A stretch of 64,000 nt of DNA from Mediterranea massiliensis (GTDB lineage Bacteria > Bacteroidota > Bacteroidia > Bacteroidales > Bacteroidaceae): positions 18,742 to 82,741 of the forward strand of contig SUYA01000008.1 of assembly GCA_015060695.1 (NCBI GenBank), in the 5' to 3' direction. The translations under genes were made by a program, and so were the position numbers. Positions 4,085 to 61,205 of this stretch are shown here, one piece after another. The notes beneath the pieces were generated by a model. The model was not told where the DNA came from, made no database searches, and saw only the letters and a program-made list of their open reading frames with translations. Numbering within the stretch: position 1 is the stretch's first letter; each line of letters opens with the position of its first letter.

Positions 4085-6079
4085 ATGACTTACAGACAAC
4101 TGACAAAGAAAGAGATTGAACAACTACAAAATCAGGCTTGCTTGGCCGATGATTGGACTTTGGTGCAGGTGGCCGAAGCATTTTCTCCGGAGTATATCAA
4201 CCATACTCGCTTTTCGGGTAGAGTATCTCTCGGAGTGTTTGAAAAAGAATTTATTTTACCGGGTGGTATTAAAAAACATGCTGCTTTGCGACATGTGACG
4301 TTGCATAACGTTACGTTGGGAAACAATTGTTTGATTGAGAATGTGCAGAATTATATTGCCAATTACGAAATAGGTGATGATACATTTATTGAGAACATTG
4401 ATATTATGTTGGTAGATGGTGTTTCTCGTTTTGGCAATGGAGTGGAAGTCTCAGTCTTAAATGAAACTGGTGGACGTGAGGTAGTGATGACCGATAAACT
4501 TTCGGCTCACATGGCCTATATTATGGCTCTATATAGGCATCGCCCAGAACTGATCGAGAAACTTCGTGAAATAGCCGATTACTATGCTAATAAGCATGCT
4601 TCGTCAGTGGGGCTTGTAGGTAATGGAGTGACGATTGTCAATACAGGCTCTATTAAAAATGTTCGTATTGGTGATGCTTGTCATATAGAAGGAACTTGTC
4701 GTTTGAGTAATGGTAGTATAAATAGTAACGTAGAGGCACCAACTCGCATTGGTCATGGAGTAATTTGTGACGATTTCATTGTTTCTACCGGTTCGCATAT
4801 AGACGATGGTGCCATGCTGACCCGTTGTTTTGTAGGACAAGCATGCAAATTGGGGCATAACTATTCGGCCAGTGACTCCCTTTTTTTTAGTAATTGTCAG
4901 GGGGAGAATGGTGAGGCTTGTGCCATATTTGCAGGGCCGTTTACGGTAACTCATCATAAATCGACGCTACTTATTGCCGGTATGTTTTCGTTTATGAATG
5001 CTGGTTCGGGCTCTAATCAAAGTAATCATATGTACAAATTGGGGCCTATTCATCAAGGAACATTGGAACGTGGTGCTAAGACTACTTCCGATTCCTATAT
5101 CTTGTGGCCGGCCAAGGTGGGCGCATTCTCGTTGGTTATGGGGCGACACGTCAACCATTCGGACACCTCGAACCTGCCATTTTCGTATCTGATAGAGCAG
5201 AATAACACCACCTATTTAGTGCCGGGTGTTAACTTGCGTAGCGTGGGAACCATTCGCGATGCGCAGAAGTGGCCCAAACGCGATGCACGTACAGATAGCA
5301 ATAAGTTGGATTTTATCAATTACAATTTGCTTAGTCCTTTTACGGTGCAGAAGATGTTTAAGGGGCGAGAGATACTGAAGGAACTGCGTCGGGCTAGTGG
5401 AGAATTGTCTGACATATATTCTTATCATAGTGCTAAGATACGCAACTCGGCTTTGGTAAAAGGAATTCGTTTTTATGAAACGGCCATTCATAAGTTTTTA
5501 GGCAATTCGGTAATCAAGCGATTGGAGGAGATCCCTTTTCGTAGCAATGAAGAGATACGACAACGCTTGTTACCAGATACACCGACTGGTTCAGGTGAAT
5601 GGGTGGATATATCGGGACTGATTGCACCGAAGAGTGAGATTGATGGCTTGATTGAGGCTGTTGAGCGGGGAGAGATAAATCGTTTGAAGTACATCAATGC
5701 CGAGTTCGAACGGATGCATCGCAATTATTACACTTACGAATGGACTTGGGCTTACGAACGATTGGAAGATTTCTATGGAGTGAAACCCGAAGAGATGACG
5801 GCGGCCGATGTGATTACCATTGTAGATAAGTGGAAAGAGGCCGTAGTGGGGTTGGATAAGATGCTTTATGAAGATGCCAAGAAAGAGTTCTCGTTGGCCT
5901 CGATGACCGGCTTTGGTGCCGATGGCTCTCGGATGGAAAAAGAGCAAGACTTCGAACAAGTGCGTGGCGATTTTGAAAACAATCCTTTTGTGACCGCAGT
6001 GCTTCGTCATATCGAAGTGAAGACAGCCTTGGGCGATGAGTTGATTGCTCGCTTACAACCGTTGTTAGCTACCAATTAG
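4085..6079 (+). CDS. DUF4954 family protein (left-handed beta-helix-like)
   Basis: 664 aa. The FAGPFTVTHHKSTLLIAGMFSFMNAGSGSNQSNH motif is recalled from the Bacteroidetes DUF4954 family, which often lies next to hflX. Confidence 0.8.
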   Translation: MTYRQLTKKEIEQLQNQACLADDWTLVQVAEAFSPEYINHTRFSGRVSLGVFEKEFILPGGIKKHAALRHVTLHNVTLGNNCLIENVQNYIANYEIGDDTFIENIDIMLVDGVSRFGNGVEVSVLNETGGREVVMTDKLSAHMAYIMALYRHRPELIEKLREIADYYANKHASSVGLVGNGVTIVNTGSIKNVRIGDACHIEGTCRLSNGSINSNVEAPTRIGHGVICDDFIVSTGSHIDDGAMLTRCFVGQACKLGHNYSASDSLFFSNCQGENGEACAIFAGPFTVTHHKSTLLIAGMFSFMNAGSGSNQSNHMYKLGPIHQGTLERGAKTTSDSYILWPAKVGAFSLVMGRHVNHSDTSNLPFSYLIEQNNTTYLVPGVNLRSVGTIRDAQKWPKRDARTDSNKLDFINYNLLSPFTVQKMFKGREILKELRRASGELSDIYSYHSAKIRNSALVKGIRFYETAIHKFLGNSVIKRLEEIPFRSNEEIRQRLLPDTPTGSGEWVDISGLIAPKSEIDGLIEAVERGEINRLKYINAEFERMHRNYYTYEWTWAYERLEDFYGVKPEEMTAADVITIVDKWKEAVVGLDKMLYEDAKKEFSLASMTGFGADGSRMEKEQDFEQVRGDFENNPFVTAVLRHIEVKTALGDELIARLQPLLATN

Positions 6080-6096
6080 ATACTATGTTTTGCCAA

Positions 6097-6135
6097 AAAA
6101 GATAGTATCTAATGACGTAAAAGATACTATCTTTT
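6097..6135 (+). terminator. Hairpin/terminator after DUF4954 (an alternative pairing is possible, see findings)
   Basis: AAAAGATAGTATCT ... AGATACTATCTTTT inverted repeat. Confidence 0.65.
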
Positions 6136-6255
6136 CAGACAAAACTCCCTATCTTTTCCAAAACTTGATATTTATTCCTTCGACAGATGTACTATTCTTT
6201 GGTAGCGCATTGATGTTTTTTCTTGTTTTTTACGAACTACTTTCAAGAATCTTTG

Positions 6256-16778: not shown

Positions 16779-16815
16779 ACCCTTTATGGAAAAATAATTT
16801 TTCCTTTACGGAAAA
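16779..16815. repeat. Two imperfect TTCC-N5-GGAA palindromic units 22 bp apart
   Basis: CCTTTATGGAAAA at 16781 and CCTTTACGGAAAA at 16803. Confidence 0.55.
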
Positions 16816-16820
16816 TATAT

Positions 16821-17105
16821 ATGTAAGTTTAGCAATCAGCATGGGTTACTTTTTTTGAAAGAAAATCAAAGGCCATCAGCAAATGTCTGTCTCTTTGATG
16901 GACATGCGTTACATTTAGTTGACAGGTAAATGATTTTGCTGTTGTTATTTGTATGCTTAGATTGTGGCGTCTTTTAATATATTGATAATTAAGCATGTAA
17001 GTCTTGTTTGTTAAGTTGTTCAACTACCTATAGGTAGTTAGCCGATTACCTATAGGTAGTTGGTTCACTACTTATAGGTAGTTGCTCTTCTACCTATAGG
17101 TAAAT
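16821..17105. repeat. Dispersed non-coding element, copy 1: four 18-bp palindromes at a 22-bp period plus a conserved flank with an IHF-like box
   Basis: Units at 17022, 17044, 17066 and 17088 (consensus AACTACCTATAGGTAGTT). The reverse complement aligns with 40277-40515. Confidence 0.92.
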
Positions 17106-17108
17106 CGT

Positions 17109-17142
17109 ATAGATGGAGAAATCAGATTTCTCCATCTATTTT
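17109..17142 (+). terminator. Perfect 15-bp inverted repeat followed by T's on the plus strand
   Basis: ATAGATGGAGAAATC-a-GATTTCTCCATCTAT-TTT. Confidence 0.6.
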
Positions 17143-17230
17143 GCTTATTACTTTTAGGATTGGATGTTGTTTAGTGGCTATTAAAGGATTCCTTTATTAT
17201 CTTTTTCCACATATCACAACAAATCTTATT

Positions 17231-40226: not shown

Positions 40227-40276
40227 GTTTCTTAATTTTAGTTTTGCAAGTATCGAAGGATTTTTTCATGTTTATA

Positions 40277-40515
40277 ATTTACCTATAGGTAGAAGAGCAA
40301 CTACCTATAAGTAGTGAGCCAACTACCTATAGGTAATCGACTAACTACCTATAAGTAGTTTGATAACTTAATAGAGGTGTCTTAAGTGCTTGCTTATCAG
40401 TGCGTTATAAATCCTTATAATCTAAACGCACAAATAAATACTGCAAAACCATTTGCATGCCCACATTTTGATTTTCTTTCATAAGGGTAAATCATGCAGA
40501 TTGCGAAACTTAAAT
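40277..40515. repeat. Dispersed non-coding element, copy 2 (inverted relative to copy 1)
   Basis: Units at 40277, 40299, 40321 and 40343. 81/84 nt are identical to the reverse complement of 17022-17105, and flank homology extends to ~40515. Confidence 0.92.
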
Positions 40516-60863: not shown

Positions 60864-60985
60864 GAAACTATCTGTTTCTCTCCACGAAACAAAGTGTTTC
60901 AGCGCTTGAAACAAAGTGTTTCACCGTATGAAACAAACAGTTTTAAGTCATTGAAACAATCAGTTTCATACCAATGAAACAGATA
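60864..60985. repeat. Tandem array of six GAAAC-N5-GTTTC-type palindromes (last unit partial), period 22-23 bp
   Basis: GAAAC at 60864, 60886, 60908, 60930, 60953 and 60976. Confidence 0.88.
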
Positions 60986-61134: not shown

Positions 61135-61205
61135 TTGGAGTACCAGGATTCGAACCTGGAATGACAGGACCAGAATCTGTAGTGTTACCATTACACCATA
61201 CTCCA
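61135..61205 (-). tRNA. tRNA-Gln(CTG)
   Basis: TGGAGTATGGTGTAATGG...ACAGA-TT-CTG-GT-CCTGT...GTTCGAATCCTGGTACTCCAA. A TATCTTTG -7 box lies at 61224-61231. Confidence 0.95.

Follow-up and report, generated by a model that had tools for sequence, protein, structure and literature searches.

A transposon-borne array of four palindromes in 22-bp phase is linked across Bacteroides to an HU-HIG gene, whose product is a candidate binder of the array

Here we report that an array of four palindromes at positions 17022-17105 (plus strand) of the window, the 64,000-nucleotide stretch of DNA under analysis, is carried by a MITE that has multiplied in this genome, and that it is not arbitrary MITE cargo, since the same four-unit module is associated throughout Bacteroides with one orthogroup of HU-HIG proteins. 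From the sequence evidence we infer, with about as much confidence as doubt, that the array holds the cognate binding sites of an HU-HIG protein and that the MITE has spread it.

The array comprises four palindromic units of 18 bp (AAYTACYTATARGTARTT) that recur at intervals of exactly 22 bp, identified from the sequence, by TRF, and in a genome scan. The units lie at 17022-17039, 17044-17061, 17066-17083, and 17088-17105 with a 4-bp spacer after each, in full agreement with the original prediction, and TRF called a period of 22 over the span 17023-17102. The array sits inside a MITE copy of the class we refer to as type A (copy 1; 16823-17198, plus strand) that consists of the left arm, the array, a terminator hairpin, and part of the right arm. 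Genomic BLASTN homology covers approximately 16813-17198, and the right terminus, close to the stop of a MatE gene, is degenerate or truncated. On the minus strand at 16975-16987, 34-35 nt from unit 1, is an IHF-consensus box, TATCAATATATTA, which corresponds to WATCARNNNNTTR. A terminator-like hairpin with a 14-bp stem followed by a T-rich tail (17109-17147, plus strand) is a conserved part of the MITE right arm. The inverted second copy of the array that had been predicted at 40277-40360 (minus strand) is indeed there and is identical to the first at 81 of 84 positions, with three differences. It belongs to copy 2 of the MITE (40237-40513, minus strand), a 277-bp internally deleted derivative, and has its own IHF-consensus box, TATCAGTGCGTTA, at 40395-40407 on the plus strand. 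The flanking homology noted originally is also real (16823-17021 versus 40361-40513) and can now be identified as the MITE left arm. Terminal inverted repeats (TIRs), which had been thought absent, are found in both copies: copy 1 has a left TIR at 16823-16835 (plus strand), GTAAGTTTAGCAA, where the family consensus is TTAAGTTTCGCAA, and copy 2 has kept both of its TIRs, at 40501-40513 and 40237-40249. Elsewhere in the window, TRF detected a 22-bp-period array at 6078-6144, directly after the stop codon of a gene, in which AGATACTATCT arms are predicted to form a terminator-like hairpin with one extra arm; a similar array is present at C21:60645.

The element was initially thought to be present twice. 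Our survey covered a Bacteroides assembly of 2.53 Mb in 28 contigs (87% complete, 41.9% G+C). A 16-mer search allowing at most one mismatch yielded 84 matches per strand across the whole genome compared to 0 for a reversed control, and a scan for arrays, defined by units with at most three mismatches, yielded 30 copies rather than two, nearly all of them with four units at exactly 22 bp. Every one of the 30 lies between genes and is oriented at random with respect to its neighbours, which are ordinary genes (amino-acid kinase, MatE, DUF349, SusD/SusC). They fall into two classes. In the 21 type A copies, the array ends in GGTAAAT and is embedded in conserved DNA on either side. The nine type B copies are solo arrays of about 115 bp; their ends are short and inverted (GTTGTTCAAC ... 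GTTGAACAAC), and their flanks are unrelated. At full length, type A copies measure 423-429 bp and define a MITE of about 425 bp, in which a TIR and a 190-bp leader are followed by the IHF-like box, the 4 x 22-bp array, the terminator hairpin, a 130-bp tail, and the second TIR. Homology among type A copies ends exactly at TTAA within 13-bp TIRs (TTAAGTTTCGCAA / TTGCGAAACTTAA) that face each other 411-416 bp apart. Target-site duplications (TSDs) had also been reported missing, and the two window copies do lack them; the family nonetheless has 9-bp TSDs, with every position matching (9/9) in two full-length copies and seven of nine in a third, while two others matched at 6/9 and 3/9 positions and mismatched flank pairings, used as a control, gave a mean of 3.7 and a maximum of 7. 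The original assessment that the element has no credible ORF holds: its sole ORF is a spurious 64-aa ORF starting with TTG. In four relatives, the orthologous interval between the kinase and MatE genes is about 480-500 bp shorter than in this genome. We also searched metagenome contigs for the exact empty junctions predicted for the two copies with perfect TSDs and did not find them, a result that is uninformative if the species is rare there. Collectively, the TIRs, the 9-bp TSDs, the lack of a credible ORF, the intergenic placement, and the shorter orthologous interval in relatives establish that type A is a MITE, a small, non-coding element with TIRs, TSDs, and dispersed copies.

Against this assignment stands the fact that we found no parent transposase. 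An autonomous partner IS with matching TIRs was recovered neither in this genome, which at 87% completeness does not show its absence, nor by BLASTN in 250 Bacteroides genomes. Two candidates were rejected: an intact IS5-family gene on contig C4 (the only intact DDE_Tnp_1 gene), because its TIR, ACGTGAGTTCGA, differs, and TIR-like pairs about 3 kb apart on contig C24, because the genes they enclose are ordinary. The shared contig ends that we examined for a parent IS held only rRNA operons and a duplicated gene, and TIR-like 13-mers with two mismatches were not in excess of a reversed control (93 versus 134). Three other Bacteroides species (G091, G082, and G092; L123-L125 and L117) have the right 60-100 bp or so of the MITE, TIR included, on its own, and these right-arm homologues are accompanied by no array, left arm, or adjoining transposase.

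Identity among full-length copies was 73% in the leader, 80% in the tail, 86-92% in the TIRs, and 94% in the array, which bears out the original view that conservation is higher in the array than in its flank. Inside the array of these copies, the 18-bp units were 97% identical and the 4-bp spacers 80%, and the corresponding values over all 21 type A copies were 97% and 78%. The spacers, which have drifted much as the MITE arms have, serve as a built-in neutral control, and thus the core units themselves are under constraint. The unit logo reads AAYTACYTATARGTARTT, then four low-information positions, and positions 2, 6, 11, and 15 of the unit vary by transitions only. In 18 of the 21 type A copies, the IHF-consensus box (WATCARNNNNTTR) lies 34-36 nt from unit 1; its four N positions are variable and its consensus letters are kept, and the motif has a genome-wide density of 1.1e-4 per position. 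Nor does the spacing vary freely: over all arrays from about 20 Bacteroides species, 171 of 178 intervals were exactly 22 bp, the others being 44 bp (5) or 23 bp (2). In the dispersed arrays, mirrored positions showed no covariation, the compensated T-A state was under-represented, mismatches of the U.G and C.A types co-occurred in the same arrays, and none of the inter-unit pairing schemes was favoured. The lack of covariation and of a favoured pairing argues that sequence, rather than base-pairing, is conserved in the dispersed copies.

Among 185,579 species genomes, two adjacent units at 22-bp phase were found in Bacteroides only, with the exception of one 2.8-kb contig in a Desulfovibrionaceae bin that is probably mis-binned. 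The public contigs with these arrays are all named Bacteroides. Arrays are present in 19 of 249 other Bacteroides species genomes, most of which have one to three, and in five IMG/VR contigs. Bacteroides sp. UBA939 has undergone a separate array expansion with different flanks. The MITE arms are essentially private to this genome, and the array occurs without them at nine sites here and in the 19 other species. Our literature search found neither the unit sequences nor Bacteroides REP-like repeats. Three to four species (B. oleiciplenus and three MAG species; L039, L042, L047, and L059) share a fixed ACTACC-type array at an orthologous site. One of its units is a variant (ACTACTACGTAGTAGT), and its neighbours are a GH3 gene and a GH2/PA14 gene, the array being 48 bp past one stop and 56 bp ahead of the next start. 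B. timonensis likewise has arrays of the ACTACC type.

The original prediction had proposed a search for a co-occurring HU/IHF-like gene, and clustering of the proteins encoded next to arrays revealed one that is genetically linked to the array. In five species, the array is abutted by the stop codon of a gene for a protein of about 160 aa that belongs to the HU-HIG family (PF18291, E = 2e-30). This genome has 12 HU-HIG paralogues, and the orthologue of the array-linked gene (contig C15:28403-28882; L072:1501-1980) has a type B array about 205 bp upstream of its ATG. Close orthologues were present in 27 of 249 genomes as 29 gene copies. In 25 of these copies the four-unit module begins no more than a few bp past the stop codon and keeps a perfect 22-bp register. 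At most of these native loci a DUF4248 gene follows about 50 nt past the module. The orthologue was detected in 9 of 19 array-positive genomes compared to 18 of 230 others, a comparison that is partly circular, as 5 of the 9 include the gene-adjacent array, which in four of those is the only array detected in the genome. The 10 array-positive genomes in which the candidate protein had no detectable orthologue, many of them incomplete MAGs, count against its being the binder. Two HU-HIG orthologues (L098 and L099; G220 and G098) lack the four-unit module and are followed instead by a different direct repeat (GTACTTTCTTTTGCCTTGATGCA...). Approximately 190 bp from the HU-HIG-linked type B array in this genome is an imperfect repeat region of about 250 bp (L072:771-1024, C15; TRF period 36-37) in which a motif of about 37 bp (TAATCCTTATTATTATGGAAGATAG...) occurs four times.

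The association extends to other members of the family. A TRF run over the flanks of the 12 HU-HIG paralogues revealed a 22-bp array at most 500 bp upstream of three of them, with a different palindrome in each: four units of the ACTACC type at about -205, five units of CCACRTATGTGG at -173 to -64, just downstream of a TATATTTG -7 box, and 2.6 units of GAGTTAACTC at about -370. Given 71 period-22 arrays genome-wide, 0.2 genes with such proximity are expected (P~0.001). Dispersed copies exist for each of the three unit families linked to HU-HIG genes. The second paralogue, the one with the CCACRTATGTGG array (L070:1258-1875), encodes a 206-aa HU-HIG + wHTH protein with homologues (E <= 1e-40) in 86 of 249 genomes. 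When the 450 bp upstream of 20 of its orthologues were analysed by autocorrelation at lags of 15-30, the best lag was 22 in 19 of the 20 regions, compared to 23 of 400 (5.8%) random windows from this genome; the dyads there are of the CACA-N-TGTG or GCTCAC...GTGAGC type. The linkage of arrays to HU-HIG genes thus holds across species and paralogues. The 22-bp phasing is likewise general. Among the tandem arrays of this genome with a period of at least 10 bp, 70 of 105 have a period of 22 bp and 14 of 11 bp, with no other period represented more than three times, and the 22-bp arrays comprise about ten unrelated unit families (e.g., TGGCAGTGGAGTGCCA, TCACAGCTGTGA, and GAGTTAACTC). Most of them, 68 of 71, do not adjoin an HU-HIG gene, a point against HU-HIG binding. 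The unit families also include the GTTTC-N7-GAAAC arrays. One of these, in the window (60873-60981) beside a tRNA gene (61135-61205, minus strand), has five GTTTC-N7-GAAAC dyads with a 22/23-bp period and belongs to a dispersed element of about 400 bp with about eight copies in the genome. A related GTTTCC-N6-GGAAAC family has about nine copies. In a sample of 80 Bacteroides genomes, 28 had the two-unit GTTTC-N7-GAAAC pattern, and a single genome had as many as 128 matches.

We propose that each unit is a candidate binding site for one dimer of the cognate HU-HIG protein. A spacing of 22 bp, or about two helical turns, would place neighbouring dimers on one face of the helix and allow cooperative binding, probably with the help of an IHF/HU-type bend in the box beside the array. 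At the gene of the HU-HIG protein itself, the array would act as an autoregulatory operator, and the MITE would have carried copies of it to about 20 more intergenic sites, which would serve as dispersed landing pads. Alternatively, the HU-HIG protein may recognise the mobile element itself, as Burroughs et al. 2017 proposed (PMC5499826). Because the units are palindromic and mutually complementary, the module is also predicted to fold into very stable hairpins, and the native 3:4 half probably doubles as an intrinsic terminator. The original proposal that the array receives several dimers of a single protein has thus gained indirect support from the strict 22-bp phase, the conservation of sequence over pairing, the IHF box, and the HU-HIG linkage; its remaining part, the binding, is what we infer. 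Two further points weigh against HU-HIG binding: Burroughs et al. consider HU-HIG proteins unlikely to be sequence-specific transcription factors (PMC5499826), and DUF4248 or another factor could be the real binder. 

The main rival to HU-HIG binding holds that the array is a hairpin cassette with no dedicated protein and matters solely as nucleic-acid structure. Transcribed or cruciform stem-loops would stop or pause transcription or shield the upstream mRNA from 3' exonucleases, and the MITE would be spreading a portable terminator or insulator. This explanation draws its strength from the native locus. There, the 88-nt module aligned without gaps in 25 species. The unit sequences vary by species, with CTAC ... 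GTAG arms kept in each unit, and the centres of units 1 and 2 are mutual reverse complements, as are those of units 3 and 4. RNAalifold independently picked the inter-unit helices 1:2 and 3:4, with double compensatory changes in 13 of 20 pairs. A model with these two long hairpins had 81.5% paired cells (91% in helix 3:4) and 92 double-change cells compared to 46 +/- 6 in shuffled columns, beating 500 of 500 shuffles. By contrast, a model of four self-hairpins was no different from shuffled columns (157/500) and was rejected. An attenuator-like 2:3 pairing was weakly above controls, with 68% paired and 5-8 of 500 shuffles reaching that level. Furthermore, a T-run ends 20 of 25 native modules. 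Based on this covariation and the T-runs, the native module is predicted to form two long hairpins, the second of which would be the intrinsic terminator of the gene. 

These native-locus data could be explained by nucleic-acid structure alone and to that extent detract from HU-HIG binding. A symmetric protein complex also requires conservation of inverted repeats, however, so the covariation is compatible with a bound protein. Other observations in favour of a hairpin cassette are the predicted folding energies of the window arrays (-67.8 and -58.8 kcal/mol; z = -12 and -11), the location of about half of the solo arrays at most 150 bp from the 3' end of a gene, and the canonical terminator hairpin that the MITE also bears. 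The dispersed copies do not fit as well. They lack covariation in any pairing scheme, and compensated pairs are depleted. The features of an intrinsic terminator were found at the native HU-HIG locus (helix 3:4 with its T-run, 20/25) and in the hairpin at 17109-17147, but neither in the array itself within the MITE nor at 27 of 36 solo arrays, a T-run being present at only nine of them. In addition, loop and inter-hairpin spacer lengths are invariant in 25 species, a constancy that hairpins do not need, and a hairpin cassette leaves unexplained both the 22-bp period shared by unrelated unit families and the arrays upstream of HU-HIG genes. A cassette of this kind therefore accounts well for the native locus and poorly for the dispersed copies, the invariant spacing, the shared period, and the HU-HIG-upstream arrays; we regard it as a live rival, albeit an unlikely one.

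It is considerably less probable that the element is purely selfish and that the array serves its own transposition or maintenance, for example as subterminal sites for a transposase or accessory protein, with no role for the host. In its favour, the array is the best-conserved part of the MITE, and BrickBuilt and MITE464 of Porphyromonas gingivalis also have internal tandem repeats (PMC4596501). The array is, however, about 200 bp from either TIR, it occurs without the MITE arms here and in other species, and different species share it as a fixed feature of orthologous host loci. A family of small-RNA genes, each producing a transcript with four hairpins and a terminator, is more doubtful still: the units are free-standing and independent of the orientation of their neighbours, and in type A a terminator lies 3' of the array, yet the MITE has no conserved Bacteroides-type -7 box (TAnnTTTG), the TIRs and TSDs show that the copies arose via transposition, and Rfam searches at gathering and permissive thresholds returned only tRNAs and sub-threshold generic hairpins. 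Finally, REP-like mobilisation by a RAYT (an HUH tyrosine transposase), to which the CTAC/GTAG heads of the units and a 195-aa Y1_Tnp-like protein with HUH and Y motifs (C4:26055-26642) might point, can be dismissed almost entirely, because the RAYT-like gene is not flanked by ACTACC units, the sole palindrome near it is GC-rich, unrelated, and inside its own ORF, and the type A TIRs and 9-bp TSDs are the signature of DDE rather than HUH transposition. The original suggestion of a REP/BIME-like non-autonomous element was accordingly right about a dispersed, non-autonomous element and wrong about its kind, a MITE with TIRs and TSDs. The RAYT/IS200-like protein itself (L069:1141-1728, equivalent to C4:26055-26642) has the HUH motif PNHFHAII and the Y motif YYEHII. 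A low-complexity insert in the protein is encoded by a GC-rich inverted repeat within the ORF, which is perfect over 25 bp and has a GTAG head (L069:1414-1438 and 1474-1498).

Bacteroides are dominant gut bacteria, and each Bacteroides genome has 10-20 HU-HIG genes. Two HU-HIG orthogroups are now linked to specific 22-bp-phased dyad arrays, which provides the first candidate DNA target for the family. One of these arrays owes its many copies to a MITE, and 22 bp predominates among the tandem periods of the genome. The sole published proposal for HU-HIG proteins is a speculative role against mobile elements (PMC5499826). If binding is confirmed, operator arrays borne by a MITE would allow a nucleoid or regulatory protein to acquire many new genomic sites in a single burst. 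Extending the idea, we suggest, with somewhat less than even confidence, that HU-HIG proteins are sequence-specific array binders, that each paralogue has a private dyad at 22-bp phase, and that the arrays are carried by MITE-like elements. If so, the roughly 70 22-bp arrays per genome would be paralogue-specific landing pads for nucleoid organisation or regulons or, alternatively, tags that allow HU-HIG proteins to identify mobile DNA and tame it.

Equally spaced sites about two helical turns apart that support cooperative binding are familiar from iteron origins and plasmid centromeres (e.g., pPS10, with four 22-bp iterons, and F sopC). The likeness to the array lies in the several equally spaced sites and in the period. 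Iterons are direct repeats at single loci beside rep or par genes, whereas here the repeats are palindromes in 30 chromosomal copies spread by transposition with no adjacent rep or par gene, and we rejected an iteron origin or plasmid centromere on these grounds. The RIP / BIME-1 elements of E. coli and the Correia elements of Neisseria are closer in that they are dispersed, extragenic, and palindromic with an adjoining IHF-consensus site; they influence where transcripts end, and nucleoid proteins bind to them. An internal tandem array is, to our knowledge, absent from Correia elements. REPs, which are mobilised by RAYTs, are GC-rich, imperfect palindromes that alternate in orientation, and in enterobacteria REP/BIME stem-loops act on transcription or on the stability of the upstream mRNA against 3' exonucleases. 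We know of no REPs with fixed four-unit 22-bp phasing, TIRs, or TSDs, and the array here differs from them in having exactly four units at 22 bp inside a MITE with TIRs and TSDs.

The closest described element is the BrickBuilt MITE of Porphyromonas gingivalis (Klein et al. 2015, PMC4596501), a non-autonomous element of Bacteroidales with a leader, an internal tandem repeat of about 22-23 nt, a tail, and short TIRs. The likeness is one of architecture only (leader, repeat, tail, TIR), as the sequences are unrelated. BrickBuilt has a 23-nt unit without spacers, in 1 to 22.8 copies, an IS5-like TIR (GAGACCTTTGCA), and inconsistent TSDs (PMC4596501), whereas the array here is fixed at four units of 18 + 4 bp and the TSDs are 9 bp; with TIRs and unit length both different, we rejected the array here as a BrickBuilt homologue. 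A link to an HU-family gene is not reported for BrickBuilt (PMC4596501).

The HU-HIG clade of the HU/IHF superfamily is expanded in Bacteroidetes (Burroughs et al. 2017, PMC5499826; Pfam PF18291; PDB 4FMR), and the array-linked genes described here fall within its glycine/acidic-tail and wHTH subclades. Burroughs et al. 2017 predicted that these proteins recognise mobile or invasive DNA, named no DNA target, and argued against sequence-specific regulation (PMC5499826). By comparison, our data point to private phased dyad arrays, one of them borne by a MITE, as the partner of HU-HIG proteins. HU-HIG binding of the arrays would fit the recognition of mobile DNA that Burroughs et al. 2017 envisaged and would oppose their view that the proteins are non-specific (PMC5499826).
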